Part shown: positions 707 to 52,495 of the stretch, piece by piece | Layout: the number at the start of each line of letters is the position of its first letter | Numbering within the stretch: position 1 is the stretch's first letter | IMG/VR virus record: IMGVR_UViG_3300029953_000001 | From: a virus | Length of the DNA stretch: 64,000 nt | Strand: one strand, 5' to 3' | Notes under the pieces: model-generated | What the model was told of the DNA's origin: nothing | What the model saw: the letters and a program-made list of their open reading frames with translations, nothing else | Databases searched by the model: none | Made by a program: the position numbers and the translations under genes

Positions 707-2167
707 ATGCCATTTTCATTGCAAGGCGCAACATCAGGTAACGGAGCCGAGGTAGATACCCTCAATCGGCTGGAGACTGTAAGCCCAAAAACACAAGATG
801 TCAACAGCAACCCCACCAACATTGGCGGGGGCGACAGAATGGTTGTGGAAATTGATGCAGGTACGGTTACTGGGTCGCCAACAATCGTCTCTATCCTCAG
901 CAACGAGTTTCGGCGATTGAAAATCGGGTTGGAGTCTCTCCTCTTTCACGAGATGTTCAACGGTACAGCCATCAACACCTCACAGTGGTCAACAACTCTG
1001 ACGACGTTTACAAACACAGTCGCAGGGGGTAAGAGCGTATTAAACGCGGGTTCATCTGTTGCCACCAGCGCGGTTGCCGCAGTAAAGAGCTATAGGACGA
1101 TGCCTCTGTACTCGGGTTTTCCTACCATATTTGAAGCTGTGGCCTCGTATCAAGCCGCTATCTCTATCGTGCCAAACAATACCACTGAAATTGGACTGGG
1201 TTACACAGCTACAAACGCAGCACCTACGGATGGTGTGTTCTTTCGTTGGAACAACGCCGGAAACTTCGTTTGTGTTGTCAACTATGGAGGCACCGAAACT
1301 ATATCGTCCCCGTTGACCCCTCCTGTTCCAAACGACTCCCATGTATTTCGCATTGTTGTGGGGAGGCTGTATTGTTCCTTCTGGGTTGATGGCATCATGC
1401 AAGCGTATATAGCAACTCCCGCAGGAGCGGGGCTTCCTGTACAGACTCAAAATCTTCCGGTGTCCCTGCGCACCTACAACTCCACGACAAGCAGCCCCGT
1501 TTCGGCTGTACAGTTGGCCGTCTACTCTGTGAGTTGTTATTTGGGCGATCAAGACGTCAGCCGTTCGTACGAACTCGCCATGGCAGGTTTGGGTGCGAAC
1601 TCAATACAGGGTCAAACAAGTGGCACCGTTGGTACTACAGCTAACCATGCAAACTCGACAGCGGCCACAGCGGCAACCTTGTCAAACACCACGGCGGGTT
1701 ACGCAAAGCTTGGGGGTAAATTCCTCTTCTCCACCGTTGCAGGGGCTGTTACAGACTACGCCTTGTTTGCCTTTCAGGTTCCAGCGGCATCGGCAAACAC
1801 CCCCGGTAAGACTCTGTACATACGTGGGGTTCATGTTTCATCCATGAACATAGGAGCCGCCGTCGCCACTACAGCTACTGTGTTGCAGTGGGGTATCGGA
1901 GTAGGTGCTACGGCTGTCTCTTTGGCTACGGCTGAAGCGGCGACAACCAAGGCTCCTCGTGTGATTGACCTTGGATTACAGACCTTCCCAATTGGTGCTG
2001 CTATTGGGGCTATGCCTCAGAACGGTGACCTTGATGTCCAGTTTCCGTACCCGCTGATGTGTGAGGCTGGAAACTATGTTCACATCATCCTCTCCCTGCC
2101 TATTGGCACCGCAACCGCTTCTCAGCAAATTCAGGGTACTGTAGTGGTAAACGGAATGTTCGAGTAA
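707..2167 (+). CDS. Putative tail fibre / receptor-binding structural protein (486 aa, Ser/Thr/Ala/Gly-rich)
   Basis: Immediately follows tail-fibre-like gene in same orientation; beta-rich low-complexity composition; RBS-like GGAGAA before ATG; ends at strong hairpin terminator. Confidence 0.5.
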   Translation: MPFSLQGATSGNGAEVDTLNRLETVSPKTQDVNSNPTNIGGGDRMVVEIDAGTVTGSPTIVSILSNEFRRLKIGLESLLFHEMFNGTAINTSQWSTTLTTFTNTVAGGKSVLNAGSSVATSAVAAVKSYRTMPLYSGFPTIFEAVASYQAAISIVPNNTTEIGLGYTATNAAPTDGVFFRWNNAGNFVCVVNYGGTETISSPLTPPVPNDSHVFRIVVGRLYCSFWVDGIMQAYIATPAGAGLPVQTQNLPVSLRTYNSTTSSPVSAVQLAVYSVSCYLGDQDVSRSYELAMAGLGANSIQGQTSGTVGTTANHANSTAATAATLSNTTAGYAKLGGKFLFSTVAGAVTDYALFAFQVPAASANTPGKTLYIRGVHVSSMNIGAAVATTATVLQWGIGVGATAVSLATAEAATTKAPRVIDLGLQTFPIGAAIGAMPQNGDLDVQFPYPLMCEAGNYVHIILSLPIGTATASQQIQGTVVVNGMFE

Positions 2168-2189
2168 CCTCACCGCATCTCGTAACAGC

Positions 2190-2216
2190 TAAAGGGGCAC
2201 CTTATAGGTGCCCCTT
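2190..2216. terminator. Bidirectional rho-independent terminator hairpin (AAGGGGCACC-TTAT-AGGTGCCCCTT) between convergent genes
   Basis: Perfect 10-bp GC-rich stem with 4-nt loop seen in sequence directly after stop of 707..2167 and after stop of 2223..2537. Confidence 0.65.
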
Positions 2217-2222
2217 CTAAGC

Positions 2223-2537
2223 TTAAATAACCAATTTCCGTATCTCCCGGTACTCCAATAGACGTTGACGCTCCCGGTCGAACTTGAGTCCATGGGCCTC
2301 ACCCGTCTTGATGTGAATCATTTCGTGAAGTAAAGTACACTTGCATATAGCCCTCCAACCCCCCACAAAGGGGTTGATCCTGATCCTCCATATACCCTCA
2401 TCTTCCAAGTAGAGGCAGTCCCCCATGGTTGCACCACCAAGAGCCTCCCACCATACCTTAGCATCAGGCAACTCACTGTTGAAATACTTGCGATTGAAAG
2501 TGTTGTAGTAAGTTTTAAGCTGACGGTCAGATGGCAT
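2223..2537 (-). CDS. SprT-like zinc metallopeptidase domain protein
   Basis: HExxH motif in context CTLLHEMIHIKTGEAHG with preceding W/G-rich region resembling SprT/Wss1-like fold (from memory of family signature). Confidence 0.5.
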   Translation of the reverse strand: MPSDRQLKTYYNTFNRKYFNSELPDAKVWWEALGGATMGDCLYLEDEGIWRIRINPFVGGWRAICKCTLLHEMIHIKTGEAHGLKFDRERQRLLEYREIRKLVI

Positions 2538-2587
2538 TGTCCCTGCTCCTCGGCGTATAAGTGTTACTACCGAAGAATTGAGTAACT

Positions 2588-3685
2588 CTATGACTGCATC
2601 GACTGGAGAGCTTTCAGATAAGCTAACCCCGAACTTTTCGCAGTCATGGTGGGATTTCCTCTGTTGATAAATACGTCGGCTGGGGATTCGTCTGGGACAA
2701 ACCGGTCGTGGCTGGGGGAGTTGATAATTCCAGTGTTGTTGGAAATTTTCCCTCTGTAGTCCTCTGCCACGCTAATAGCCTTAGCCGGGATGTCCCGCAG
2801 GTAAGCAACCTGACCCGTCAAGTGCAAACTGACCGGCCATTCGCAGTACGCCCAGCTACTGTCGTCAAAGGCGTCACCAAATATAGTTTGAAGCTGAGCC
2901 TTCTCCTCATCCGGCAATTCATCGAACATAACCGGGAAGTCTGCATCGTCAGGGCGGAGGTCAGCCTTGTTCAGAAACTTGGTTGCGATTGCCAACGTGA
3001 CCTTGCCTGATTCTCTCTCGCCAGCTTCGTAGTGGTCGGGGTAGTTTCCGGTCATGTGCTTGTCGATAGCCAAGTAGACTGCACCACCGTCCCATTCGTT
3101 ATGGGACGAGGACTTGTCTGTCATCAGACCGTTGGCGAGGATGTCTTGCACCTTGGCCCCTACTGTACCGTGATAGAGATACGCTGGCAGCGTGTACCGC
3201 TTGTCAGCCGCAGTCTTCGGTGCGGGGTTCTCACCCTCGTTTTCTACCTGATTTTTTTCAATGGCATCGAAGGCGTAGTCGAAGGGGACTTCGAAGACCT
3301 CACCTACTCGGGAATCTTCCCAGTCATCGGGGTAGTGGGCTAGGTACATCTCAAAAGCAGAGTCCATGTCAGGGAACCCTAAAAGACACTTGTACTCGTC
3401 AAATTCCCCCTCGTCATCTAGCTGCTCCACGACGTACACATGGTCGGACTCCGTGTCCGGTCCTATGTAAACGTCAAGACCCTCGCCATCCCCAGCGGCC
3501 CTAGTTTCAGGTACAAACCCGTAATCACAAAGCATGGTTCTCTTCCATCCCTTGCCGTTATTATCCTTACCGGTGCGTACACTACCTTTCGGCCACTCAA
3601 GTACGATAGGTATTCCTCGGAATTCAGATGAGTGCATCTGAGGGAGTTTCTCGGCTCTGCGGAGGAATTTGGACTTGAAATTCAT
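2588..3685 (-). CDS. Two-domain protein: N-terminal family-I inorganic pyrophosphatase-like domain fused to C-terminal Tpt1/KptA-like (ADP-ribosyltransferase fold) domain
   Basis: N-term GIPIVLEWPKGS...MLCDYGFVPETRAAGDGEGLDVYIG matches PPase signature (xIEIPkgs..; NYGFIPqT; DGDPLDVlV). C-term YLYHGTVGAKVQDILANGL...GGAVYLAIDKH resembles KptA C-lobe FLYHGTASRFLDEIKKQGL...RHYVHLSAD (H-G-T...Y of ART fold). Confidence 0.55.
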   Translation of the reverse strand: MNFKSKFLRRAEKLPQMHSSEFRGIPIVLEWPKGSVRTGKDNNGKGWKRTMLCDYGFVPETRAAGDGEGLDVYIGPDTESDHVYVVEQLDDEGEFDEYKCLLGFPDMDSAFEMYLAHYPDDWEDSRVGEVFEVPFDYAFDAIEKNQVENEGENPAPKTAADKRYTLPAYLYHGTVGAKVQDILANGLMTDKSSSHNEWDGGAVYLAIDKHMTGNYPDHYEAGERESGKVTLAIATKFLNKADLRPDDADFPVMFDELPDEEKAQLQTIFGDAFDDSSWAYCEWPVSLHLTGQVAYLRDIPAKAISVAEDYRGKISNNTGIINSPSHDRFVPDESPADVFINRGNPTMTAKSSGLAYLKALQSMQS

Positions 3686-3810
3686 AAATGCCCTTGGTTA
3701 AAACAGAGTTAGGTGTGTCTCTACATTGGATTTCAGAGTCGAGAAATTGAAAACCTTCGTATTATCAGTCAATGGGTTCAGTGTATGAGTCCAGCCACAA
3801 AGAGTGAACT

Positions 3811-5208
3811 ATGAAGTTCACTAATGACGCGCACCGCGTAGTTACTTATATGCGCCATGTACGCGCACACGATGTTTGGAGGAAGACGCGATTGGCAACT
3901 AAAAAGAAAGACTCAAAGAAGCCCACAACGCCAGCCGATGCTGAGCCTAAACTTACTCAGAACCAGAGAGCTATGCTCTCGGAGCGTGGTAAGAAGTACG
4001 ACCCTGATGCAACCAAGGAAGACTGCATCAACGACCTGCGCGGTGTCCAGAAGGCAAACCCGGATAACTTCATCAGCCGTAACTTCTATCGGGTGACCGG
4101 TCGTTATTCTGAGAAAACTTGGAACCGGTACTTTGGTACCATGGAGGAGTTTCGTTCAGAAGCTGGCCTCCAGCTAAGCCGCAGTCAGCGACACCTTGAG
4201 AAGCACATCGCGAAGCACGCCTCCTTGGATGAGGCTCGTAAGTTCTACCGGGAGGAGATTGAGCCGTGGGTCGAAAAGTTCCCCAAGGCCAATCAAGCCA
4301 AACCGGGAATGAAGAAGATGGTTATCGCTTCGGACTTCCACGACATTGATGTAGACTTGTTCGTCCTCTCGGTCTTCCTTGACACTTGTCGAGTCGAGCA
4401 GCCGGACATCATTGTTCTGAACGGTGACATCTTCGACCTGTACGAGTTCTCCCACTTCGACCGTGACCCCCGTAAAATCAACATGAAGCTCCGTATGGAC
4501 TTTGTGCGTGAGAACATTTTCGCCCCCTTACGTAAGTATTGTCCCAACGCTCAGATTGACCTTATCATCGGAAACCACGAGCTTCGCATCCTGAAGCACA
4601 TGGCCTCCCGTACGGAGAACATGGCGGCGTTGATGGACTTCATGGGTCTGGACTTGGCGGCTCTGTTCGGCTTGCCCAAGTACGAAATCAACCTTGTCTC
4701 CAAAGGAAATACGGCAGCGTATCAGACCAAGGAAATCAAGGAAGAGATGGCGAAGAACTTCAAGCTGTACTTTAACTGCTTGGTTTGCAACCATACTGGT
4801 TACGAGAGCTTTGGCGTGACTACGGTAAGCGGACACACTCACCGGGCGGAGTTGACTTCGGAAGTTCATCTCATCCAAGGTCCCATCAACAAGTTGACCA
4901 CCGGCTGCATGTGCAAGCTGGATGCCGACTATACCAGCACCAAGACCAACTGGCAGAACTCCTTCTGCATCGCCTACATTGACCCCTTCGCAGAGAAGGT
5001 TCAGTTGAATCACGCGATGTTCACGGAGCCGTTCATCAACGTCAACGGTAGGTATTACTACCGCGATTATGAGAGCACGGAGCTTCGTGACTTGCAGTCT
5101 GCTGTTGACCGTATCAAGGAGCAAGAGATTCGCGGCTTCGTTCACAAGGATGAGGGCACCGCAATCGTCGCCGGTCTGAGTAAAGCAAAACGGGCCGGGG
5201 CTATATAG
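3811..5208 (+). CDS. Calcineurin-like metallophosphoesterase (phosphoesterase/nuclease) with basic N-terminal extension
   Basis: All metallophosphoesterase motifs present in order: VIASDFHD (DxH), LNGDIFD (GDxxD), IIGNHE (GNHE), VSGHTHR (GHxH). Confidence 0.85.
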   Translation: MKFTNDAHRVVTYMRHVRAHDVWRKTRLATKKKDSKKPTTPADAEPKLTQNQRAMLSERGKKYDPDATKEDCINDLRGVQKANPDNFISRNFYRVTGRYSEKTWNRYFGTMEEFRSEAGLQLSRSQRHLEKHIAKHASLDEARKFYREEIEPWVEKFPKANQAKPGMKKMVIASDFHDIDVDLFVLSVFLDTCRVEQPDIIVLNGDIFDLYEFSHFDRDPRKINMKLRMDFVRENIFAPLRKYCPNAQIDLIIGNHELRILKHMASRTENMAALMDFMGLDLAALFGLPKYEINLVSKGNTAAYQTKEIKEEMAKNFKLYFNCLVCNHTGYESFGVTTVSGHTHRAELTSEVHLIQGPINKLTTGCMCKLDADYTSTKTNWQNSFCIAYIDPFAEKVQLNHAMFTEPFINVNGRYYYRDYESTELRDLQSAVDRIKEQEIRGFVHKDEGTAIVAGLSKAKRAGAI

Positions 5209-5657
5209 TGCAGGGTCTTACAATCACGCACGGTTACAAGCCTAGTGACATCGACAGAATGTACGAGCTTGAGAAACTGGGCTTCAGCCGAATCTTCCGC
5301 TGGTCTAAAAAGGATTTCGTCTCAGCCATCAAAGACTGCGACGTTATAGCCGGGGTGTACGAGAATGAGATTATGGGGTATGTGCTCGGTGAAGTCCATG
5401 GCGACACCGGGCACATCGTCTCTCTTGTTGTAGACCCAGCCTATCAAGGTAGAGGTTTCGGTAGGATTCTGTTGGAAGAGGTAGAGAAGTTCTACGCTAC
5501 CAAGGACCTGAAGAAAATTAGGCTGGAAGTCCACATTGACAACCCAGCCCAGATGCTCTACTTCAAAGCTGGCTACCGCGTGGCCGGGTTCAAGCCAAAG
5601 TATTACTCCAACGGCTCCCCGGCCATCGCAATGAGCAAGTCTCTCAAGAAGCCTTAG
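5208..5657 (+). CDS. GNAT family N-acetyltransferase
   Basis: Acetyl-CoA binding motif VDPAYQGRGFGRILL (Q/R-x-x-G-x-G/A) in a ~150 aa protein; start overlaps upstream stop (ATAGTG/ATG coupling). Confidence 0.8.
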   Translation: MQGLTITHGYKPSDIDRMYELEKLGFSRIFRWSKKDFVSAIKDCDVIAGVYENEIMGYVLGEVHGDTGHIVSLVVDPAYQGRGFGRILLEEVEKFYATKDLKKIRLEVHIDNPAQMLYFKAGYRVAGFKPKYYSNGSPAIAMSKSLKKP

Positions 5658-6235
5658 TCAAGCTTCATCTCCTTCAACATCCGCTTCGTATCCTTGCAGT
5701 CCCCACACACGGGTTTTCCGCACCACCGCTTTGAATGGTGTTCAGCCAGCTTGTCGTTGTAGTCCCCATACTTCTTCAGGACGTTCTTGGCGAGGCGGAT
5801 GAGACCTTCATCGAAGGTGGAGCCCCCTGTGTCGAGGTCACTGTCGTGGCAGTGGTGGAGCAGAGTGGTATCGTCCCAATCACCCATGGGCTTATTGTCC
5901 CCCGAGTAGGCGTAGCCATAGTAGATGGGGCCGAACTCAAGCCAGCACTCGATGAACTTGTTCTTGCTCTTATCATCGTCCACCCGACCTCCCCTCTCCT
6001 TGTTGACTCTGGCGTAGAAGATGTCAAGATTATGGTCGAGAGCATGACACCACAGATGACGCCAGATGCGATAGCACTTGCCCCCGGTGTCACGGGTGAT
6101 GAGGAAGCCTTCGGCCTCCATCTTGTCAGCTTCCTCAGGTGTGACCTCGGAGCGGTCCTGTACGTTCAGCTTGGGGTGTGAGTAGATAAACCACCAAGCC
6201 TCGAAGCTGTTAGTTATTTTACGTTTTGTCCTCAT
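5654..6235 (-). CDS. Hypothetical protein (193 aa; His/Cys/Trp-rich)
   Basis: Long ORF, overlapping-stop coupling with neighbours; no recognised motif. Confidence 0.5.
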   Translation of the reverse strand: MRTKRKITNSFEAWWFIYSHPKLNVQDRSEVTPEEADKMEAEGFLITRDTGGKCYRIWRHLWCHALDHNLDIFYARVNKERGGRVDDDKSKNKFIECWLEFGPIYYGYAYSGDNKPMGDWDDTTLLHHCHDSDLDTGGSTFDEGLIRLAKNVLKKYGDYNDKLAEHHSKRWCGKPVCGDCKDTKRMLKEMKLD

Positions 6236-8035: not shown

Positions 8036-8953
8036 TCAAACTGATGGTTGGTGATGCTTCGGGGGCTTTAGGGGTGAAGGTTCCGGCTTGTGGCGCTTCT
8101 TCCACTCATCGACCAGCTTCCGCATCATCTCCGGCTTGTTCATACAGTAGTAATACCGATAACTGAGTTTGTTGTTGATAGTGGGGTCATCCTGCCCTTC
8201 CCACCGCCTGTCCTTCCAGCTTACCTGCCGCTTCACGCCGTCACTACCAATCATGGGATGCCAGACATGCAGCACAGATGTCGGGAGCGTCTTGTGAGGC
8301 CAGTACAGCGTGTCCATAGCCCTCATAGCAGCGTGATCTTCGCCACCCCATCCTCTGAAGGACTCATCCCAACCACCTACAAGCTCAAAAGCTTCGCGAG
8401 GAACGATATGAATCATCGCTCCATAGTGGTGACCCGTGCGAGGGTTGGTATCATTGATAGTTAGGCTCAGGTCAGGGGGTTCCCCCAATGGGTACGGGTT
8501 GGCAGGGCTACTGGCAAGAAGCCGTTCGCTGGCTTCCTCATTTAGACGATAGAACTGACGGTAGGGCACAAACCACAGACGACGGTCTCGCTCACGAGCA
8601 TGACGAATCTCATTGACGCAGTGCATCACATGGTCAATGGCGATAAAACCATCGGCGTCCACGATAACAAGCACATCTCCGGTAGACCGGGACACCGCAT
8701 CATTGATAGCCACGGACTTGCTGAAGGCTCTATGCGTTTCAGGGTCGTCTCCGAGTATCACCTCTGCTCCGGGAAGTTGAACCTCCCAATATTGCTTGAG
8801 CCACAGGACATTCCGTAGCCGTTCTTTAGCCTTCTCTGATGGACGAAAGGGAATGATGATACTGACCCCTTCCCCCTTCTTCTCGCGGCGGAACAAACCT
8901 AAACCCAACATAATCAGCATCGCTCCTAGAATAGTCAATATTGTTATTGTCAT
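8036..8953 (-). CDS. Membrane-anchored family-2 glycosyltransferase (GT-A fold)
   Basis: N-terminal TM helix (TITILTILGAMLIMLGLGLF), then IIIPFRPSE...VLVIVDADGF (DxD) and conserved C-terminal GWDE..F.GWGGED motif typical of GT2. Confidence 0.75.
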   Translation of the reverse strand: MTITILTILGAMLIMLGLGLFRREKKGEGVSIIIPFRPSEKAKERLRNVLWLKQYWEVQLPGAEVILGDDPETHRAFSKSVAINDAVSRSTGDVLVIVDADGFIAIDHVMHCVNEIRHARERDRRLWFVPYRQFYRLNEEASERLLASSPANPYPLGEPPDLSLTINDTNPRTGHHYGAMIHIVPREAFELVGGWDESFRGWGGEDHAAMRAMDTLYWPHKTLPTSVLHVWHPMIGSDGVKRQVSWKDRRWEGQDDPTINNKLSYRYYYCMNKPEMMRKLVDEWKKRHKPEPSPLKPPKHHQPSV

Positions 8954-9741
8954 ACTTTCAATAGACCTCCCAGCGAACGGTAGGCGTCGTAAACGTTGTA
9001 CTTGATTTCCTCAACATTGGTGCGCGTCGGCTCCTGCATCTTGCCGATGATGAACTGTGTGTTGATACTAGCACTGTAATCCCGGAACTTGAAGTCTCCC
9101 CCATCCTTATCCATCTTAGGGGTGTACTCTACCCGGCGAGGGATACCGAACGCATCGGCCACAATCATACCGTGAAGCGATGATGTGACGATACGACGAC
9201 ATGCCCCTATATCCTTGAGGACAGTGAGGGGGTCTCCGCTTGGGTGAATAACACGGACAGTGTATTTTTCAGGTACAACGGCTTTGAACTTGGGTACGAG
9301 AATGGTGTCGCTGAAGTGGGGGATGATACCCAAGTCCCATCGCTTCACCTGAGGTCCAACCAACTCATCCGCTAGAATTCCGGGATCGCCCAGCGCGTAA
9401 CTACCCGGTATTCCCCTAGCTGTGAGGGGACCACGAAGGGACAGAATCTTAGCTGTGATGCCACTCGTCATTTGTTGAATATGTAACCGGGAGGTTTCGA
9501 GCAGCCGCCCTGAACCCAAAATCACACCGTCCCACAATGGCGGAATATGCTCCAAGATTGACCCGACTGACGCTATCTGAGCATGGGATATAGTCCCCCA
9601 CTCAACTTCCAAATCAGCAAAATGCTCTAAAAGGAGGGGTGCCAAACCATCACCGAAGTTTGGCACTTCCCTCCACCAGTATGCCATTGTCTGTTGCTTG
9701 AATCGCGTCCCCATTTTACTTCTCCCGTTTTTGGTCTTCAC
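8950..9741 (-). CDS. Polysaccharide pyruvyl transferase family protein (WcaK/CsaB-like)
   Basis: N-terminal NFGDGLAPLLL (N-x-GD motif) and C-terminal VTSSLHGMIVADAFGIPRRVEYTPK resembling pyruvyl transferase signature (R/S-LH-x-x-I-x-A-x-x-G-x-P...Y-x-x-K). Confidence 0.6.
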   Translation of the reverse strand: MKTKNGRSKMGTRFKQQTMAYWWREVPNFGDGLAPLLLEHFADLEVEWGTISHAQIASVGSILEHIPPLWDGVILGSGRLLETSRLHIQQMTSGITAKILSLRGPLTARGIPGSYALGDPGILADELVGPQVKRWDLGIIPHFSDTILVPKFKAVVPEKYTVRVIHPSGDPLTVLKDIGACRRIVTSSLHGMIVADAFGIPRRVEYTPKMDKDGGDFKFRDYSASINTQFIIGKMQEPTRTNVEEIKYNVYDAYRSLGGLLKV

Positions 9742-9790
9742 TAACGAGGGGAAAAGCTTTCCTACACGATGATTATTTGATTTAGCTTTT

Positions 9791-9937
9791 TCATAGGGTG
9801 TTACAGCAGGTTTTACAGTTAAATTGAAGACCGTCTTTACTACATCTATTCTTATGGAATTGGGACGTAGGAAAGGGTTCTTGACACTTAGCGCAAATCT
9901 TATAATCCAACGCCAGTGCTTTCCTCGGCGATGACAT
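9791..9937 (-). CDS. Small Cys-rich zinc-ribbon ORF (…YKICAKCQEPFPTSQFHKNRCSKDGLQFNCKTCCNTL) resembling the N-terminal zinc finger of phage HNH endonucleases; possible remnant
   Basis: C-x2-C ... F-H-K-N ... K-D-G-L-Q ... C-x2-C pattern; start taken at internal Met of ORF 9791..10024 which otherwise overlaps 9900..10427. Confidence 0.3.
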   Translation of the reverse strand: MSSPRKALALDYKICAKCQEPFPTSQFHKNRCSKDGLQFNCKTCCNTL

Positions 9938-10427
9938 CCACGACCTCTGCATCTTCAACGTCCGCTTCAAATACTTCATCCGCAACCGGCTCAGATAATT
10001 CCACAGTGGTAGGGTCTCCTCCATCAGCCGGAGCCACAGTAATCTGCGGCTGACGAGCGTTGACCTCCTCCTGAGTCAGAGCCTCGTAACTGAAGATGAA
10101 CTCAGTTGCCTGACTTGCATCCGTGACGCCTTCGGGGAGTTCCCACTTGATGCTGAGAACCTTGGTCTCGAATGCATCGAGAGCGGATTTGGGGAGCGTT
10201 ACTTTCCCACCCTGTGCTTCGATGATGGAAGCACACAGAACCGACAGACGCTTGTTCTGCCCAACGGCCTCACGCATCTGAGGGATGAGTTGACCGAGAG
10301 CAGTCTCGGGGTCGGTGCGAAGCTTCTCATTCTCGGCCTCAAGCATGAGGATGTAGTGCATGGCCTTCTTATGAGTCTTGTTGGCGGACGGGCGGATGTT
10401 CTTGCGTTTTGCGTTGGCTGATGACAT
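9900..10427 (-). CDS. Hypothetical acidic protein (175 aa), basic N-terminus then Glu/Asp-rich tail
   Basis: ORF with good coding periodicity; no motif. Confidence 0.5.
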   Translation of the reverse strand: MSSANAKRKNIRPSANKTHKKAMHYILMLEAENEKLRTDPETALGQLIPQMREAVGQNKRLSVLCASIIEAQGGKVTLPKSALDAFETKVLSIKWELPEGVTDASQATEFIFSYEALTQEEVNARQPQITVAPADGGDPTTVELSEPVADEVFEADVEDAEVVDVIAEESTGVGL

Positions 10428-10468
10428 ACTTCCTCTTTCCTTTGGCCGGAGCCCTATTTGCGACCTTC

Positions 10469-10984
10469 TTAGCGGTCTTCTTCACTGGTTTTTGACATTG
10501 CCTCTACCCACCGAGATGTAACTAAGAAGTCACTAACGGCTTGCACAAGAGCGGGGTACACAGTCGAGTTGCCCACCAACCCAACGAGCTTGGTGAGTTC
10601 CCCCATGGCCTTGACAGCCGCGACAGCCTCGTCGCCCATGTAGGTGTAGTCTTCAGGACCACAGTCAAACTGAGCCGAACCCCACATCTCGGCGAAGGCT
10701 TCCTCGGCGAGGTTGTCTACTTTATAGTCGGGGTTCTTCTTCATCATGCGGGTCTGGGGGTCAACGATGTATGCTTCCGTGGAAGGGTTGTCCGCCTTCG
10801 GGGCAGCATCGGAGGAGAGGATGGTGGTGTCGAAGATAGGGCTCCAACCGGACTGAAGACCAACACCACTCAGCAGGTCTTCATAGTATAGGTCGTCAAT
10901 TTTGCGGTACTCTCCACTTGTAGTCTTGAAGATAGCGTTCATGGGAATCTGAGCAAATTTAGTAGGCATTATGGTCTCCATCAA
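10469..10984 (-). CDS. Hypothetical protein (171 aa)
   Basis: ORF; no motif. Confidence 0.5.
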   Translation of the reverse strand: MMETIMPTKFAQIPMNAIFKTTSGEYRKIDDLYYEDLLSGVGLQSGWSPIFDTTILSSDAAPKADNPSTEAYIVDPQTRMMKKNPDYKVDNLAEEAFAEMWGSAQFDCGPEDYTYMGDEAVAAVKAMGELTKLVGLVGNSTVYPALVQAVSDFLVTSRWVEAMSKTSEEDR

Positions 10985-11005
10985 GCTAATACTGGTTTTA
11001 CAAAA

Positions 11006-11191
11006 TTAGTGACCTATGTATCTGTCGGTTACATCCATCTCCTCGAAACGGCGGGTGATGCGCTGGCTCTTACTCGGGACGTTGAATTGTTCTCCAACAA
11101 ATGCCATCGCCGCTATCCGAGTATCCACCACGCCAACTAACTCCTCATCTTCTGAATAACCAAAATTGTCGAACAAACAATAGACCGTCAA
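11006..11191 (-). CDS. Small hypothetical protein (61 aa)
   Basis: Short ORF packed between neighbours; stop adjacent to next start. Confidence 0.35.
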   Translation of the reverse strand: MTVYCLFDNFGYSEDEELVGVVDTRIAAMAFVGEQFNVPSKSQRITRRFEEMDVTDRYIGH

Positions 11192-12286
11192 TTATTTCTC
11201 CAAGGTAATGATGCGGTTAGTGAGATCCAGTTCCTTAATGCACTTGATGACAGCATCCTTGCTCAACTGGGAGCAGACAAGGATAGGGACATTCTTTGGT
11301 GGGAAAAACTGATCGGGAGGGTAAACTATTGCATCCTCAAAGTTGTTCCAATGGTAGACCGGGTTGGAATCAGTAGCCCACAGGATTTCCACTCCTGCCG
11401 GGATGATGCCAGCAGGAACCAGCAGCCGAGTAGTCTGCCCCATCCCCCAGATGGCGAGGGCGCTGACTCCCTTTAACTCAGCGTGAAGGTGTTCCTTCAT
11501 GGTGGCAATCTGGGTGTTCAGTTTGAGGGCGTAGGCGGAGATGGCTTCACACACGTTAGAGGCGTGAGGATGAGCCAGAACCCAGATGACCGGGTAAAGT
11601 TGATTGCCTTCAGCGGTGGACTCATAGGAACTCTTGTCGTACACTTCCATGCCGACACACGCTCTGACCAAGTGGCTCAGGTCGAAGTGGTTGATGTGTT
11701 CAGCGTTGAACCCTTGACAGATGGAGTTGAAGTAGCTCACGTACTTCAAGGCGTTGGGGACTTCGATGTAGATGGAGCCGTGGGGCTTCACCCAACGCTT
11801 CAAATTGTGGAGAAAACCCTGCACGTCGGGGACATGTTCCAGCACGTGGGAAACGGTAATGAGGTCATACGTATTCGGGAGCCATGCTTCCACACCGCAG
11901 CACCGAGCCTTCAACCCTTTGGCTGTGCAGCAATCGACTTCGGCCTGAGAGAGGCTGATACCTTCCACGTTGGTAAATCCGGCTGCGATGAACGCCTCCA
12001 TAAGCCCACCAGTCGCACACCCCACGTCCAGTACCGACGTGTTTACGGTAGCTCCGGCTCTCATAGTGTTGGCTACGATGGCACGGTAGTGAGCCTTCTG
12101 GGCATTGTAGGTGCCGGAAGCATAGATGGATTCCTTGCCATAGTCGATTACAGGGGTGTGGGTGGCGTACACCATCTGGCACTTCTCACAGCTAACAATC
12201 TGCTGGCCGGTGGGAGTGGTGTACAGCAATTCATTCAAGGAGTAATCGCAGCAGGGACAATGTCGTTCAGGCTTACTTGGGTTCAT
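11192..12286 (-). CDS. SAM-dependent methyltransferase with N-terminal zinc-ribbon and C-terminal C-methyltransferase-like domain (NDP-sugar C-methyltransferase architecture, TylC3-like)
   Basis: CPCCDYS...SCEKCQ zinc ribbon; SAM motif I VLDVGCATGG; acidic D after beta2; ~120-aa C-terminal extra domain as in sugar C-methyltransferases. Confidence 0.7.
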   Translation of the reverse strand: MNPSKPERHCPCCDYSLNELLYTTPTGQQIVSCEKCQMVYATHTPVIDYGKESIYASGTYNAQKAHYRAIVANTMRAGATVNTSVLDVGCATGGLMEAFIAAGFTNVEGISLSQAEVDCCTAKGLKARCCGVEAWLPNTYDLITVSHVLEHVPDVQGFLHNLKRWVKPHGSIYIEVPNALKYVSYFNSICQGFNAEHINHFDLSHLVRACVGMEVYDKSSYESTAEGNQLYPVIWVLAHPHASNVCEAISAYALKLNTQIATMKEHLHAELKGVSALAIWGMGQTTRLLVPAGIIPAGVEILWATDSNPVYHWNNFEDAIVYPPDQFFPPKNVPILVCSQLSKDAVIKCIKELDLTNRIITLEK

Positions 12287-12827
12287 ACTTATCCTTCAGT
12301 ACCTTCATCCGGTATGCTTCCTGAGCCAGACCTAGATGTTCGAGGATGGGCATCACGTAATCGTTCGACCGCTCAAGGCGGATGGCATGGGGCGGGAGTA
12401 CGGCTTCAATCTTGGGGGCGAAGGAGTCCGACGCTTCTCTGTCCTGCTGCACCCTGCCGGTGCCGTGGAACTTGAAGTCGTCGTTGCGGGGAAGGTAGAA
12501 GACGATGTTGTCGTACTCGTTGAAGTAGGCGTGGACTACATCCACCAGTTCAGGCTTGGGGTCGGTCGCGTAGACGATGCCGAGAAGAAGGGACGTGTCA
12601 GTGACCGCGTAGTCGATGTTCTCCAGACGGGATAGCTTGCGGTTCTGCTTTGCCAGAATGTAAAGCTGGTCGGCAAGGATGTTTCCTCTGTGCTCATACA
12701 CCATATCCTTTGCATACTCGCTGGCGTACTCCACGCTCAAACCCATACGCTTCATGTAGTACAGGAGCCCGTAGACGGTGGTGGATTTGCCGGTGTTCGA
12801 TGCTCCGATGAGATTGATGACCTTCAT
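12273..12827 (-). CDS. P-loop kinase-like protein (T4 gp1 dNMP kinase / AAA_28-like)
   Basis: Walker A at extreme N-terminus MKVINLIGASNTGKST, comparable with T4 dNMP kinase MKLIFLSGVKRSGKDT; size 184 aa. Confidence 0.6.
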   Translation of the reverse strand: MKVINLIGASNTGKSTTVYGLLYYMKRMGLSVEYASEYAKDMVYEHRGNILADQLYILAKQNRKLSRLENIDYAVTDTSLLLGIVYATDPKPELVDVVHAYFNEYDNIVFYLPRNDDFKFHGTGRVQQDREASDSFAPKIEAVLPPHAIRLERSNDYVMPILEHLGLAQEAYRMKVLKDKYEPK

Positions 12828-13084
12828 TTTTTGCCCTCGGCCACATTACCCGGCCAGAGTTTGTGTTTGTTTCCACGGGCATGGTCAGCAGGGCAAGGCA
12901 ACTCCACCCCTTCTGGTTCCCAGCCAGTGAAAGCGATACCCCAAGCAGCGCGGAGAGCTTGCCAGTCCTTCTGCTTGTCGCAGTGTTCACACTCACCGGG
13001 AGCGTGAAGGATTCTCTGGTCACAGTGGGGGAATTGCTCGATGGAGTCGAGGATATTGATTTCGGTTTTGATTTTCTTGAACAT
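12824..13084 (-). CDS. Small Cys/His-rich protein (86 aa)
   Basis: ORF with HCDQ...ECEHCDKQ metal-binding-like pairs. Confidence 0.45.
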   Translation of the reverse strand: MFKKIKTEINILDSIEQFPHCDQRILHAPGECEHCDKQKDWQALRAAWGIAFTGWEPEGVELPCPADHARGNKHKLWPGNVAEGKK

Positions 13085-13272
13085 TAGCTCTCCAGACTAC
13101 ATACAACGTAACTTACCCTTGGTTCCATCATGTCAGTAAGATGGTTGCTGCAAACTACAAACTCCTCATAGTCGCTATCATCCTCGGCCTGATTGTTGAA
13201 CCGCCACTCAGCCGCTTCATTACACGGAAGGCCCAGACAAGTGCCATCGTCTTTAACATAGTCACACTTCAT
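13084..13272 (-). CDS. Small acidic hypothetical protein (62 aa)
   Basis: Short ORF, start/stop coupling with neighbours. Confidence 0.4.
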   Translation of the reverse strand: MKCDYVKDDGTCLGLPCNEAAEWRFNNQAEDDSDYEEFVVCSNHLTDMMEPRVSYVVCSLES

Positions 13273-13502
13273 AGTGAAGCTCCGAACCCTATGACCGCAG
13301 CTTCAATCTTGCGAAGACGTTCAATCTCGTCTCGAATGGAACAACCAAGGTTCCGGCTAAAGGTAATGGCGTCTTCCTCATCGGCGTTGACCCACGAGAT
13401 GAAGGCATCAAGAAGTAACCGACCCCTCTCCCTCTCCTGTACTGCGTATGGTGCTGTCCCCGTCGTCAGTGTCGGTGGTTGTAGCTTGTATGGTGTCATC
13501 AT
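13269..13502 (-). CDS. Small hypothetical protein (77 aa); 5' end overlaps 3' end of helicase gene by ~95 nt
   Basis: ORF only; overlap makes it uncertain. Confidence 0.3.
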   Translation of the reverse strand: MMTPYKLQPPTLTTGTAPYAVQERERGRLLLDAFISWVNADEEDAITFSRNLGCSIRDEIERLRKIEAAVIGFGASL

Positions 13503-15195: not shown

Positions 15196-15221
15196 GTTAG
15201 CTACCTTGCTTTTCTAAGCAC

Positions 15222-15491
15222 TCACGAATTCGGTACTTTAGTGCAGGGACACATGGGGTTCACACACGGAATCTCTTCCGGCTTATCCCGCATCTTCCGG
15301 TTGTATTCTGCCTTCTCCTTCGCATGGTTGCGTAGCCTCTGGATGGGTTCGGCAAGGGCTTGAACGAAGCTACCCCACTGCGACACTGACTCCAAGCAGG
15401 GGTCGCCGTCAGTCTCCCGGATGAACTTGAGTGCCTTGGTCGCCAGTGTGTCGGCAAACTCGAATATGTCAACGTCAATCTTTAGACCCAT
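15222..15491 (-). CDS. Small hypothetical protein (89 aa)
   Basis: ORF between helicase and NADAR genes. Confidence 0.4.
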   Translation of the reverse strand: MGLKIDVDIFEFADTLATKALKFIRETDGDPCLESVSQWGSFVQALAEPIQRLRNHAKEKAEYNRKMRDKPEEIPCVNPMCPCTKVPNS

Positions 15492-16102
15492 GCTGGCAAC
15501 TCGCTCCTCGTCTTGCTACAGGTTTTGCACTTGTGGGCGTTCTGCCGACAATCGGCATCACACTGCTGTGCGTCATCATTGCCGGGAGCGATGAATTCGT
15601 GGATGTGGAAGTCCGGGCTCTTTACTTCTTCACGGACTATCATCCAAAGCTTGCCCAGCATGTTGTGGCCGTTGCCGTCCTCTCCCCAGCCCCAAAATGA
15701 ATCCCGATAGGAGTCTTCAATCAACTCACGGGTACCGGTTTCCATGAGCTTACGACGCACGTACTCATGCTGATACGCCTTAGCCCTGAGCAAGTCCTGC
15801 ATGATGCCAGTCCTTACATCTTCCCAATCGGGACGACGGTACTCTGTGTACTGAGCGGCAGTCTTGAAGGCTTCGTGAGCAGAGGGAGCCTTGATGATGC
15901 TCTGTTGAATGCCGAACACGGTCAGTCTATCCAGAGCCCCCTCGGGTCTGTAGTTGAACTTCTCCCAGTGGTACGCTGCTTCAGACGTGTCGAAGCGGAT
16001 ACCCTTCCACTGAAGGGTGAAGGACGAGAAGTTGGACAGGACGTAGAAGTCCTGCTCGTAGAAGAATACCTGCTGGTCGGTGTCGAGTTTATGGTTCGCC
16101 AT
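15482..16102 (-). CDS. NADAR (YbiA-like, DUF1768) domain protein
   Basis: FFYEQDFYVLSNFSSF...TSEAAYHWEKF and DSFWGWGEDGNGHNMLGKLWM match E. coli YbiA blocks (FYS..fSNF..., tsEHYFQAqKF, dayWGdGghGkGkNrLG.lLM) from memory. Confidence 0.85.
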   Translation of the reverse strand: MANHKLDTDQQVFFYEQDFYVLSNFSSFTLQWKGIRFDTSEAAYHWEKFNYRPEGALDRLTVFGIQQSIIKAPSAHEAFKTAAQYTEYRRPDWEDVRTGIMQDLLRAKAYQHEYVRRKLMETGTRELIEDSYRDSFWGWGEDGNGHNMLGKLWMIVREEVKSPDFHIHEFIAPGNDDAQQCDADCRQNAHKCKTCSKTRSELPAWV

Positions 16103-16108
16103 ACTAAC

Positions 16109-16546
16109 CTAATACCCCGGAACGGGGGAAGGTCGGCCCAGATAGCTAAACTTTGCCTCCCCGGAGCGTTCATCCACATGGTCTAATTCGGCTAAGAAAG
16201 CCAGCACATCCCCATGGCACAGATACTTCGGCTTACACCAGCAGCCCAAGGTCTTCCCGCGTAACTCTGGGAGACGGACAACTAAGTTGGGCATGGATAG
16301 GACGTACCTACGGTACTTCTCAAGCACGACCTTGCGGTTGCCGTCGTAGCCAAGGCGGAAGGGATTGTGCCAGTCGGACTGGGAGAACTCCAAGAACGAC
16401 CGGCCAATGTAGATGTCAAACTGAGGGCTCTTCCTTACATGCACAACTGTTGTCAATTCGTTGTCCTCTAAATGAAAAATCTTCCATGCTATCCGCCGTA
16501 CATAGGGTTCTAATACTGGTGATTTTTGATTTTTGACAGTTGGCAC
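16109..16546 (-). CDS. DUF4326 domain protein
   Basis: FDIYIGR...W.NPFRLG...YRRYV...LPELRGKTLGCWCKPKYLCHGDVLAFLAEL matches DUF4326 consensus (YIGRGS.WGNPF...LRGK.LGCWC.P..CHGDVL). Confidence 0.75.
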   Translation of the reverse strand: MPTVKNQKSPVLEPYVRRIAWKIFHLEDNELTTVVHVRKSPQFDIYIGRSFLEFSQSDWHNPFRLGYDGNRKVVLEKYRRYVLSMPNLVVRLPELRGKTLGCWCKPKYLCHGDVLAFLAELDHVDERSGEAKFSYLGRPSPVPGY

Positions 16547-52087: not shown

Positions 52088-52495
52088 TCACTTCTTTGGC
52101 GTTGCTGGTGGTGCTGGTGTTGCCGCGGGTGGTGCTGGTGGTGCAGCCGTTTTGTACCACGCATCCTTGCTCTGGTCATACACATAACTGGTATCCCAGC
52201 CATTGTCCTTGCGAACACGTTCGACCCATGCGGCCTCCTGCCCTTCAAGGACAGCGTACTGAGCCTTCATTTCGGACATTTTCTCCTTGTACTCTCCGCT
52301 CATGGCAGCGGCGGAGAGAGTCAAAGTCGTTTCCTTCTCGATAGCGAGAAGAACCTGAGCATGGGCAAGGGGGTCAAGCACTTTGGCCGTCACTTCAGTA
52401 GGAGTGACTGTCGGGGTCGGGGTTGGCGGTGGGGTTGACTGAGCAAGGATGCTGGTGGACACCATTGCTAAAGTAAGTAGACCGATTAGCTTCAC
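52088..52495 (-). CDS. Secreted Pro/Thr-rich protein with N-terminal signal peptide
   Basis: MKLIGLLTLAMVSTSILAQS signal-like N-terminus; PPPTPTPT and APPAPPAATPAPPATP tracts. Confidence 0.5.
   Translation of the reverse strand: MKLIGLLTLAMVSTSILAQSTPPPTPTPTVTPTEVTAKVLDPLAHAQVLLAIEKETTLTLSAAAMSGEYKEKMSEMKAQYAVLEGQEAAWVERVRKDNGWDTSYVYDQSKDAWYKTAAPPAPPAATPAPPATPKK

Follow-up and report, generated by a model that had tools for sequence, protein, structure and literature searches.

Organization of the locus

The window (the whole 64,000-nucleotide stretch of viral DNA that was analyzed) comes from a soil jumbo phage. At the locus considered here, a gene encoding a fusion of an inorganic pyrophosphatase (InPase) domain to an ADP-ribosyltransferase (ART) fold adjoins a protease gene and is divergent from the genes of a phosphoesterase and an acetyltransferase (Table 1). 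All four open reading frames reported in the initial annotation were confirmed, coordinates included.

Table 1. Features of the InPase-ART locus and their positions in the window
Feature	Position	Strand	Remarks
InPase-ART protein, 365 aa	2588..3685	(-)	head, linker, cassette, C-terminal peptide
InPase domain, residues 18-126, polyvalent-protein clade of family I pyrophosphatase	3308..3634	(-)	PF18823
K157-T-A-A160 inter-domain linker motif	3206..3217	(-)	KTA[AGS] enrichment
ART-fold module, residues 158-313	2747..3214	(-)	candidate catalytic H172 (3170-3172), Y204 (3074-3076), D246 (2948-2950)
C-terminal peptide, residues 340-365 (...SGLAYLKALQSMQS), predicted helix	2591..2668	(-)	conserved in relatives
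SprT-like zincin metallopeptidase, 104 aa	2223..2537	(-)	PF10263; HEMIH...H at 2292-2327
Divergent intergenic region, InPase-ART gene / phosphoesterase gene	3686..3810	(.)	
Calcineurin-type metallophosphoesterase, 465 aa, conserved N-terminal domain	3811..5208	(+)	phrog_20266
GNAT acetyltransferase, 149 aa	5208..5657	(+)	PF00583; start overlaps phosphoesterase stop codon

The three neighbors had been read as a SprT-like protease, a calcineurin-like phosphoesterase, and a GNAT, and profile matches bear out each of these assignments. The SprT-like protein scores 34.3 bits against a PF10263 cut-off of 25.6, and its H71-E72-x-x-H75...H82 motif (H-E-x-x-H...H-G) shows no variation among four orthologues. 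The 465-aa protein matches the phrog_20266 metallo-phosphoesterase family (E 4e-59), scores slightly under the PF00149 cut-off (20.8 versus 21.5 bits), and carries the phosphoesterase motifs D-x-H, G-D-x-x-D, G-N-H-E, and G-H-x-H as SDFHD, NGDIFD, GNHE, and GHTH. The GNAT matches PF00583 with an E-value of 2.8e-16 (60.3 bits against a cut-off of 20.7). A scan of the intergenic region for sigma-70-like promoters and terminators found none exceeding background.

The locus sits amid structural genes: tail-fibre-like and Mtd_N genes occupy 223-2167, and a terminase gene lies at 20.9 kb. Just past the left edge of the window, genes of the same phage (L002) specify an ART-PolyVal/GNAT protein of 825 aa and a giant protein exceeding 1,442 aa, and an opposite-strand block of tail-fibre-like genes sits between the peptidase and the giant proteins. 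NADAR (PF08719, E 1.2e-26) and DUF4326 (PF14216, E 1.8e-21) genes, likewise noted earlier, are indeed present at 15482..16546. They lie approximately 10 kb from the InPase-ART gene, beyond glycosyltransferase, methyltransferase, and helicase genes, and a shared genome is the sole tie between them.

Conservation of the gene block

The arrangement GNAT<-phosphoesterase<-|->InPase-X->protease->giant protein, where X is the swappable part behind the InPase head, is conserved in metagenome lineages L001, L010, and L011 and in gp270-273 of Tunturi_5, a cultured jumbo phage relative in which gp270 is the phosphoesterase, gp272 is InPase-X, and gp273 is the giant protein. The phosphoesterase gene keeps its position and strand in all four, and a GNAT gene follows it in L001, L010, and L011 as well. 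The SprT-like gene lies directly 3' of the InPase-X gene in L001, L002-L005, L010, and L011, and this placement holds in all five metagenome lineages examined; Tunturi_5 instead carries a JAB-type metalloprotease gene immediately upstream of the InPase gene.

The same domains also occur together in giant proteins. P0088 is a single chain of 2,303 aa that comprises SprT, InPase, ART-PolyVal, the ART module, NUDIX, and a further ART module, and the P0070 giant protein contains InPase, ART-PolyVal, the same ART-like module, NUDIX, and GNAT. The giant protein of L011 (1,524 aa) combines SprT with ADPrib_exo_Tox.

The N-terminal domain

Residues 18-126 match PF18823, the InPase family, with an E-value of 1.7e-34 and a score of 119 bits against a gathering threshold of 26.8. 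Classical family I PPase (PF00719) was rejected as the family, since it scores 12.9 bits against 23.5 and aligns across 25 residues only. Thus, the domain belongs to the polyvalent-protein InPase clade, and the sequence blocks from which a family I-type pyrophosphatase had been recognized are real. The definition of PF18823 comes from work on phage polyvalent proteins (Iyer, Burroughs, Anand, de Souza, Aravind 2017, PMC5512222), and the clade is described as lacking the beta-hairpin that classical PPases insert between strands 1 and 2 (PMC5512222). PPases in the PDB match the domain at E 0.5-1, and among solved structures its closest relative is the C-terminal part of the Pa193 portal protein gp19 (9b41, E 2e-20). 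An AF2 model of residues 20-150 has pLDDT values of 78-93.

Among 49 relatives, no variation is seen at D71, D96, E97, K99, R37, and Y55 and almost none at D54, D66, and E68, and D66-G-E68-G-L-D71 aligns with the G-D-G-D-P-V-D of solved PPases. Judged from these alignments, the domain is a PF18823 pyrophosphatase whose predicted metal-binding acidic residues are intact. PHROG matches to the InPase region are very long families that include "minor head protein," "virion structural protein," and "DarB-like antirestriction," and 458 phage records match the InPase part only, often inside genes for minor head proteins or portals.

The site behind the InPase head

Sequence comparison identifies the position that follows the InPase head as a site of cassette swapping, occupied by RelA/SpoT, 2H/Acb1-like, GP88, nucleotidyltransferase, GNAT, or ART modules. 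In a census of 49 InPase-head proteins, 16 carry RelA_SpoT, three have 2H, and GP88, NTase, and GNAT are each present in one or two; the YHGT (ART) module is found in eight InPase-head proteins. The motif KTA[AGS] occurs 65 times in 153 InPase proteins as compared to 6.8 ± 2.5 times in shuffled sequences, an approximately 10-fold enrichment among related sequences whose events are non-independent. Its positions coincide with domain boundaries, and in Tunturi_5 gp272 it stands directly after the InPase head.

The C-terminal peptide is retained in P0002, P0004, P0005, P0006, P0043, and others regardless of the middle cassette; the AF2 model places a helix at residues 347-361 with low confidence. 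P0002 and P0003 keep the whole InPase-ART architecture at 48-63% identity. P0004 (207 aa) consists of head and tail with no cassette, so head-only versions exist, and because its C-terminal peptide remains in frame, it points to clean gain or loss of a cassette rather than a frameshift.

The ART-fold module

The fold of the second domain is that of an ADP-ribosyltransferase and is nearest to the NAD lobe of KptA/Tpt1, as the initial annotation had proposed. Transferases are at the top of its profile matches, and it has no family match in Pfam. H172 and Y204 fall in predicted strands 12-18 and 46-49 (module numbering), and D246 comes directly after predicted strand 86-88 (strand 5). H172, T174, and D246 are nearly invariant among 52 diverged sequences, in which the majority residue in strand 2 is Tyr or Phe (the window protein and most relatives have Tyr), a pattern that speaks for purifying selection acting on a catalytic site. 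The window subfamily has a helical insert of approximately 45 residues inside the module and lacks a basic residue that relatives have shortly after H-G-T.

Membership in ART-PolyVal (PF18760) was rejected, given the lack of a Pfam match and hhalign probabilities of 1.4% against the neighboring 825-aa ART-PolyVal protein and 3.6% with a 13-copy alignment. Since the module lies outside PF18760, the parallel with H-Y-D active sites is one of alignment and predicted secondary structure, and H172, Y204, and D246 are best regarded as candidate catalytic residues.

Membership in the Tpt1/KptA family (PF01885) was rejected as well, as the score of 12.6 bits is below the cut-off of 26. The likeness consists of a Y-H-G-T...G-L-x-P motif and a terminal "(V/I)-P-P-x-x-I" strand, and it includes the H-G-T of the NAD+ lobe, which contacts ADP-ribose in Tpt1. 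The alignment is restricted to KptA residues ~89-179, and the module is preceded by the InPase domain and a linker rather than by a winged-helix RNA lobe, in agreement with the earlier observation that this lobe is absent. Three residues (Arg, His, Arg) of Tpt1's essential Arg-His-Arg-Arg tetrad reside in the RNA lobe (PMC6333775), so the R-H-R-R active site that had been suggested for inspection cannot form here. Given these missing residues and the Tyr that replaces the strand-2 His of Tpt1, the module falls outside the Tpt1 family; the Asp after strand 5 is a further difference.

Interpretation of the InPase-ART protein

The 365-aa protein probably belongs to the phage "polyvalent protein" class of effectors, as a compact form with two enzymes, and is encoded in a conserved operon. 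Among the protein-modifying domains of polyvalent proteins, ARTs occur most often, and zincin peptidases are the most frequent hub; both are standard partners of InPase, as are GNAT and NUDIX (PMC5512222). InPase, ART (H-Y-D), and MPTase have all been described as parts of phage polyvalent proteins, for which packaging and injection are predicted (PMC5512222, PMC9503650). The hallmarks of the class are found at this locus: two unrelated activities (InPase and an ART fold) share one chain; the setting is that of a phage, with a terminase, tail-fibre-like genes, and a jumbo-phage relative; a zincin-like metallopeptidase is associated, as a separate neighboring gene here and in the same chain in P0088; and the domains are shared with or adjoin giant proteins (P0088, P0070, the 825-aa and >1,442-aa proteins of L002, L011, and gp273).

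By analogy with polyvalent proteins, with T4 Alt, and with the InPase domains on portal and MuF head proteins, the InPase-ART protein would be expressed late and loaded into the capsid, for which the constant InPase head, the C-terminal helix, or both may serve as the handle. In the proposed operon order, InPase-X would come first, followed by the small zincin (SprT-like) peptidase and then the giant polyvalent proteins, with the phosphoesterase and GNAT genes divergent. The K-T-A-A linker may be cleaved by the neighboring zincin or by a prohead protease; the peptidase is a separate 104-aa protein, so autoprocessing in the polyvalent style is not a given here. Once the protein had entered the host along with the DNA, the ART domain would catalyze NAD+-dependent ADP-ribosylation of a host macromolecule, and the InPase domain would remove pyrophosphate or split a nucleotide-derived phosphoanhydride. 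The general reading offered in the initial annotation, a phage system of NAD/ADP-ribose-based host manipulation or counter-defense, is a reasonable one.

Alternative explanations

It is unlikely that the protein acts in Tpt1/KptA-like processing or repair of nucleic acid ends, transferring ADP-ribose onto a phosphate, terminal or 2', in RNA or DNA and working with the pyrophosphatase, the phosphoesterase, and (elsewhere) 2H, NUDIX, and NADAR to mend tRNAs or other RNAs that host defense nucleases have cut, or to cap ends. The retained H-G-T, the 2H/LigT phosphoesterases among the sibling cassettes at the same site, and the NADAR and DUF4326 genes in the genome are consistent with such a role, and KptA, 2H, and NADAR of jumbo phages have been tied to RNA repair (PMC9503650). 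Against it stand the missing RNA lobe with its tetrad residues (PMC6333775) and the strand-2 Tyr and near-invariant Asp, which resemble those of the H-Y-[ED] ARTs that modify proteins or DNA. Moreover, the top sibling cassette, RelA/SpoT (16/49), is of a toxin or alarmone type and not a repair enzyme, and the setting is a polyvalent effector operon in which an RNA ligase was not seen nearby.

There is a somewhat smaller chance that the two domains form a counter-defense pair acting on small molecules, with the ART fold serving as an NAD+ glycohydrolase or ADP-ribosylating a small phosphorylated signal and the InPase hydrolyzing a nucleotide-derived phosphoanhydride signal of host immunity. Acb1-like 2H sibling cassettes (PF23474, E 3.8e-8), whose family degrades cyclic-nucleotide immune signals, would fit this scheme, as would the NUDIX domains alongside InPase and the ART module in P0088 and P0070. 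It fits poorly with the profile matches, of which the best are to transferases, and with a search for specific similarity to NADase ART-fold families, in which none was found. PADLOC returned zero matches, and the InPase domain keeps the canonical active-site residues of PPi-type enzymes with no sign of altered specificity.

That the ART-like module is dead and serves a structural or binding purpose (as a decoy or an NAD/ADPr sensor), with the InPase head mainly a structural domain of the capsid interior, is improbable. Portal and head proteins do carry C-terminal InPase domains, and the helical insert and the absence of the basic residue after H-G-T in the window subfamily would suit an inactive module. 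The conservation of H172, T174, D246, and the strand-2 Tyr/Phe and of the InPase metal ligands speaks against it. Finally, an assembly or frameshift error that merged two separate genes found no support and is refuted, since at least 22 contigs (the longest in the indexed cluster being 431,749 bp) from independent samples in JGI, ENA, and Logan encode an identical 365-aa product, P0002 and P0003 share its architecture, and the C-terminal peptide of P0004 is in frame without a cassette.

Comparison with known systems

Reading the InPase-ART protein as a compact polyvalent effector places it beside several described systems. The MuF polymorphic toxins of temperate phages (Jamet et al. 2017, PMC5576092) likewise join a constant virion-associated N-terminus to variable C-terminal effectors, RelA/SpoT-like and ART domains among them (PMC5576092, PMC9503650). 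By comparison, InPase, an enzyme, here takes the place of MuF as the constant domain, a conserved peptide follows the variable part, an immunity gene is not evident, and the carriers are lytic-looking jumbo phages. T4 Alt, a capsid-carried ART that is injected with the DNA and modifies host proteins (PMC5512222, PMC9503650), provides a functional model; Alt belongs to the R-S-E clade, lacks InPase, and is proven to be packaged, whereas packaging here is inferred. ART-PolyVal (PF18760, Tox-ART-HYD2-like) shares with the ART module its superfamily and H / Y / D pattern (PMC5512222), and the two co-occur in the P0088 and P0070 chains and in the same phage. With no HMM match and an insignificant profile-profile comparison, the ART module is nonetheless a separate family.

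The closest comparison is with the polyvalent proteins themselves. The building blocks are the same (PF18823 InPase, His/Tyr/Asp ART, zincin-like peptidase, GNAT, NUDIX, 2H, and RelA/SpoT), as are the phage origin and the giant multidomain neighbors, and homologous modules lie within P0088 and P0070. The differences are that the 365-aa chain has two enzymatic domains only, the peptidase (104 aa) is encoded by a gene of its own, the ART domain falls outside PF18760, and a constant head and a constant C-terminal peptide flank a swappable cassette; in addition, the text of PMC5512222 makes no mention of the K-T-A-[AGS] boundary motif. The initial annotation held that these domains are not normally fused and that their combination is not a described system. 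Neither view can be upheld, since PF18823 was defined in polyvalent proteins, where ARTs are common (PMC5512222), and P0088 and P0070 carry InPase, ART-PolyVal, and the same ART-like module in one polypeptide. Thus, the fusion is real, and it represents a compact version of described polyvalent effectors rather than a new kind of system. The conserved gene block, the swappable X, an ART module outside Pfam, and KTA[AGS] enrichment at the domain boundaries are apparently new details.

The four-gene locus

The initial annotation placed four ORFs in this locus and assigned a SprT-like protease, a calcineurin-like phosphoesterase and a GNAT as neighbours of the 365-aa fusion protein. All four ORFs were recovered exactly where they had been placed, and Pfam and PHROG scans confirmed the flanking identities (see table). 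The translation of the 465-aa phosphoesterase shows the D-x-H, G-D-x-x-D, G-N-H-E and G-H-x-H motifs, and in an alignment of phosphoesterases (A6) the N-terminal domain and the calcineurin motifs are common to the members. This N-terminal domain (residues ~60-125), found in 4/4 orthologues and without a Pfam hit, is invariant in the four at I73, N83, R90, F92, R94, F114, A118 and L120. It may resemble a homing-endonuclease-associated helix-turn-helix repeat.

At least 22 contigs, drawn from JGI, ENA and Logan samples, encode the identical 365-aa protein; the longest contig in its indexed cluster is 431,749 bp, and two homologues (P0002 and P0003) of 48-63% identity share its architecture. These independent contigs rule out a frameshift or assembly artefact as the origin of the fusion. 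No match to the locus was found at the nucleotide level among 50,697 phage records, PADLOC defence models gave no hit to any of the four proteins, and a scan of window positions 2000-6000 found promoters and terminators at background only. The window holds no tRNA genes.

Features of the window and of two further loci
Feature	Coordinates	Strand	Basis or detail
Tail-fibre-like block	223-693; 707-2167	+	Mtd_N protein, 486-aa protein without family, collagen-like protein
Same block in L002 (same phage)	11519-15899		
104-aa SprT-like protein	2223..2537	-	Pfam, 34.3 bits vs cut-off 25.6
365-aa InPase-ART protein	2588..3685	-	ORF; Pfam PF18823, N-terminal
C-terminal peptide	2591-2668		residues 340-365
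K-T-A-A linker	3206-3217		K157-A160
465-aa metallophosphoesterase	3811..5208	+	phrog_20266, E 4e-59; PF00149 slightly below cut-off
Phosphoesterase N-terminal domain	3811-4300		
149-aa GNAT	5208..5657	+	Pfam, E 2.8e-16
Glycosyltransferase cluster	8036-12286	-	
NADAR	15482..16102	-	PF08719; KTA[AGS] at position 80
DUF4326	16109..16546	-	PF14216
Large terminase subunit, 1,011 aa	20903-23938	-	intein-like insert
ORF with KTA[AGS]	28149-31565	-	single copy, position 308
ORF with KTA[AGS]	48905-49717	-	single copy, position 56
ORF with KTA[AGS]	52088-52495	-	single copy, position 115
Tunturi_5 gp271	L013 8409-8894		JAB/MPN-type metalloprotease, PF14464

The InPase head

Residues 18-126 of the 365-aa protein match the Pfam family PF18823, 'InPase', with an E-value of 1.7e-34. 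Therefore, the sequence blocks from which a family-I pyrophosphatase had been proposed are genuine family-I-type motifs, and DYGFVPET and GDGEGLDVYIG align to the G-D-G-D-P-V-D of solved pyrophosphatases. The family itself, however, is the PF18823 clade and not classical PF00719, whose model scores only 12.9 bits. Judged by sequence, the head belongs to a specialised clade defined in phage polyvalent proteins. PHROG matches of the domain are internal stretches of very long families annotated as minor head protein, virion structural protein or DarB-like antirestriction. A further 458 phage records match the InPase domain only, often as part of a portal gene or one labelled 'minor head protein', in PB1-like phages among others. 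The best solved relative is the Pa193 portal protein, residues 637-745 (9b41, E = 2e-20). The cryo-EM ribbon of that portal covers residues 94-528, and the InPase-like region was not built (PMC11456595).

Exchangeable cassettes and polyvalent neighbours

Over residues 1-150 the closest InPase heads show 50-65% identity, and their downstream domains differ. Among 49 InPase-head proteins the cassette is RelA_SpoT in 16, the YHGT ART-like module in 8, 2H/LigT (Acb1-like) in 3, GP88 in one, a nucleotidyltransferase in one and GNAT in one or two; the homologue P0004 has no cassette whatsoever. Cassettes thus swap at a defined site after the InPase head. The extreme C-terminus, G-x-A-Y-L-K-A-L-Q-S-M-[KQ], is kept with different cassettes or none and may be a capsid-loading signal. 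K-[TS]-[AS]-G often stands just before it.

Similar domains recur in much larger proteins. The 2,303-aa P0088 carries SprT-like (44-114), InPase (893-1026), ART-PolyVal (1232-1351), ART module (1393-1516), NUDIX (1798-1913) and a second ART module (1979-2095), and the 2,829-aa P0070 has a like layout plus a GNAT. Two contigs of the same phage (L002 and L003) run beyond the left edge of the window and give the order SprT, an opposite-strand tail-fibre-like block, an 825-aa protein in which ART-PolyVal and GNAT domains each occur twice, and finally one of >1,442 aa. In three related loci (L001, L010 and L011) the giants follow SprT directly without this block, which suggests that the block is an insertion or inversion. 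The InPase gene encodes InPase only in L001 (then SprT, 1,036 aa and >1,851 aa), InPase with ART-like and RelA/SpoT in L010 (then SprT and >1,998 aa), and InPase with a 2H/Acb1-like domain in L011 (then SprT and a 1,524-aa protein with SprT and ADPrib_exo_Tox). In all three, a phosphoesterase of ~420-510 aa and a GNAT lie divergently upstream of it.

The nearest cultured phage is Tunturiibacter phage Tunturi_5, a 309-kb jumbo myovirus (PMC11924767), so the window probably derives from a jumbo phage of soil Acidobacteriota. Its locus has the same layout: phosphoesterase (gp270), InPase with a GP88 cassette (gp272), and NUDIX with three ART-PolyVal domains and a GNAT (gp273). No SprT-like gene follows its InPase gene, and a JAB/MPN-type metalloprotease (gp271) lies immediately upstream, suggesting that a non-homologous enzyme can take the place of the accessory protease.

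The K-T-A-[AGS] motif

K-T-A-[AGS] occurs 65 times in 153 InPase-bearing representatives against 6.8 +/- 2.5 in shuffled sequences (maximum 15), a roughly 10-fold excess. As these sequences are related, their counts do not represent independent events. Permuted motifs, used as controls, number 4-16 in the same set. The motif stands directly after the InPase head in the 365-aa protein, in P0028, P0011, P0007 and P0017 and in Tunturi_5 gp272, immediately ahead of ART-like modules in P0088, P0112 and P0017, and between domains of neighbouring polyvalent proteins, including the L002 825-aa protein. It is absent from the text of PMC5512222. We regard K-T-A-[AGS] as a candidate proteolytic processing site. 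The motif, the head-cassette-tail layout and the C-terminal peptide appear to be new as details.

The motif is found in three or four further window proteins, one of which is 1,138 aa long and adjoins the terminase. Since four other ORFs have a copy against ~1-2 expected by chance (a rough estimate), the motif may serve maturation cleavage in this phage more generally, and the cutting enzyme, if any, could be a prohead protease rather than the SprT-like protein. The copy in NADAR is probably due to chance.

Fold of the C-terminal module

As a single sequence, the C-terminal half gave only sub-threshold Pfam matches, to PARP (E = 0.0045) and Tpt1 (E = 0.15). A word-indexed homologue search with this half returned only four proteins and a 10-sequence profile only three. 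A 13-sequence profile with a lax E-value yielded 40 more, mostly stand-alone proteins of 140-160 aa without Pfam annotation, and structure modelling thereby became possible. With an alignment of 52 sequences of the module (A5) as input, AlphaFold2 modelled residues 158-313 at a mean pLDDT of 81.3 and a pTM of 0.76. A first full-length run, whose alignment mixed non-homologous cassettes, gave a pLDDT <50 for the C-terminal half, and that half of the model was discarded.

Foldseek matched the model to KptA (E = 8.7e-5, probability 1.00). The sequence profile alone matched Tpt1 (E = 6.6e-7), then DarT and PARP3, and a smaller profile matched Tpt1, DarT, PARP1, exotoxin A and PARP16. Many jumbo-phage proteins in a viral structure library share the fold, among them at least eight paralogues of Bacillus phage G and a PaBG 'putative RNA 2'-phosphotransferase', in agreement with the report of ARTs in >40% of jumbo phages and of at least 10 in phage G (PMC9503650). 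These structure and profile comparisons bear out the proposal of an ART-like C-terminal half nearest the NAD lobe of Tpt1; the predicted fold is that of an ART and not some other fold.

The close subfamily of the module is rare: a scan of viral contigs found nothing, and a metagenome scan found three loci, one of them identical. An exhaustive search found P0112, with two copies and no InPase, and several InPase proteins with more distant copies, and an HMM built from these copies found further ones inside giant proteins. With tblastn against phage records, the module and tail matched an uncultured 484-kb phage weakly (E = 1e-3); the only other hit was spurious. About 40 clusters of stand-alone 140-160-aa proteins (P0154-P0195), with the pattern Y-H-V-T...G-E-I-Y-A-F...D-x-N-D-P and no Pfam annotation, are an uncharacterised ART-fold family related to this module. 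An ART family without a Pfam model, ~50 clusters of stand-alone proteins and copies in giants, is now defined, and it is structurally intermediate between Tpt1/KptA and ARTs of the toxin/PARP type.

Other genes of the window

The NADAR and DUF4326 genes noted in the initial annotation are present. They lie ~10 kb from the InPase-ART operon, separated from it by glycosyltransferase, pyruvyl-transferase, methyltransferase, AAA and SNF2-helicase genes, and the only tie found between the two is residence in the same genome. These adjacent genes, possibly an ADP-ribose-reversal pair, may have an independent ADP-ribose-reversal or counter-defence function. Beside the effector block, a cluster of glycosyltransferase, polysaccharide pyruvyl-transferase and SAM-methyltransferase genes, kept in L001-L005, may modify the virion or host surface. 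The intein-like insert of the large terminase subunit bears a LAGLIDADG homing-endonuclease domain (PF14528), and the parts on either side match the Tunturi_5 terminase in two pieces at 45% identity.

Proposed role of the InPase-ART protein

On balance, we favour a packaged effector that modifies a host macromolecule. The 365-aa protein would be synthesised late, loaded into the capsid, possibly cut at the inter-domain linker and injected along with the DNA. The ART module would then ADP-ribosylate a host macromolecule with NAD+, and the InPase would clear PPi or a nucleotide-derived phosphoanhydride, the two roles put forward by the authors of the family (PMC5512222). The firm part of this reading consists of the domain identities, the conservation of catalytic-type residues in both InPase and ART module in alignments of relatives, the synteny with the protease and giants, and the exchange of cassettes. 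Removal of cassette-made PPi was set aside as a general rule because most cassettes release none. To our knowledge, among the cassettes seen only nucleotidyltransferases do so, and ART, 2H and RelA/SpoT do not.

A broader reading, which we hold only tentatively and consider doubtful as a whole, is that InPase-head proteins are a distinct, undescribed effector-delivery family of large soil phages. The constant catalytic InPase head and C-terminal helix would be capsid-loading handles, with a swappable cassette (ART-like, RelA/SpoT, 2H/Acb1-like, GP88 or NTase) between them. The adjacent stand-alone zincin (or JAB) would cut K-T-A-[AGS] after injection and so release the cassettes as well as the domains of the giant polyvalent proteins encoded nearby, and the ART cassette would be a new KptA-derived H-Y-D family that lost the RNA lobe and was retargeted to a host macromolecule.

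Comparison with Tpt1 and with polyvalent proteins

Tpt1 has a winged-helix RNA lobe at its N-terminus and an NAD+ lobe at its C-terminus; of its essential Arg-His-Arg-Arg tetrad, Arg18, His19 and Arg68 (CthTpt1) lie in the RNA lobe, and His101 and Thr103 of H-G-T contact ADP-ribose (PMC6333775). The window module retains H172-G-T174. Its matches, however, span KptA residues ~89-179 only, in keeping with the annotated absence of the RNA lobe, in whose place stand the InPase domain and linker. Strand 2 reads A-V-Y204-L-A, whereas Tpt1, with 'VHLS', has a histidine there. The nearly invariant D246 comes after the fifth strand, as seen in A5, the model and the secondary structure. With the RNA lobe and tetrad missing, a strand-2 tyrosine and an aspartate after strand 5, the module is not a member of Tpt1.

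The same features make a Tpt1-like ADP-ribosylation or repair of nucleic-acid phosphates unlikely as the role of the protein, although the proximity to KptA and the 2H sibling cassettes favour it: the lobe and tetrad are missing, and the His/Tyr/Asp pattern differs. A small-molecule or NADase counter-defence role is rather improbable, and an inactive structural domain very improbable. An assembly or frameshift artefact is effectively refuted, with negligible probability.

The ARTs of polyvalent proteins have His in strand 1, Tyr in strand 2 and Asp in strand 5 (PMC5512222). H172, Y204 and D246 follow this pattern and, from the alignment and secondary structure, may cluster in space. The module is nonetheless not a member of ART-PolyVal (PF18760): there was no HMM hit, and two hhalign tests gave probabilities of 1.4% and 3.6%. 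Because of this, and because the two occur together in the same chains, we treat it as a separate ART family.

The initial interpretation is partly supported: it was right about both folds and wrong about an undescribed combination, since InPase, ART, the zincin 'MPTase', GNAT, 2H and RelA/SpoT are known parts of polyvalent proteins predicted to be packaged and injected (PMC5512222; PMC9503650). These proteins are a sequence prediction of 2017, and their packaging and processing are still largely predictions (PMC5512222; PMC9503650; PMC11924767). The locus is unusually small and separable, its two-domain effector being 365 aa long and its stand-alone protease 104 aa, and a cultured relative exists in Tunturi 5 on Tunturiibacter; virion presence, zincin cleavage between the domains and ART modification of a host target are therefore testable. 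The linker motif and the head-cassette-tail layout are concrete, testable additions, and the locus is a convenient, experimentally tractable entry point. It reveals no new kind of system and will not surprise phage-conflict specialists: it belongs, as a new, compact and partly disaggregated case, to the polyvalent-protein effectors already known.
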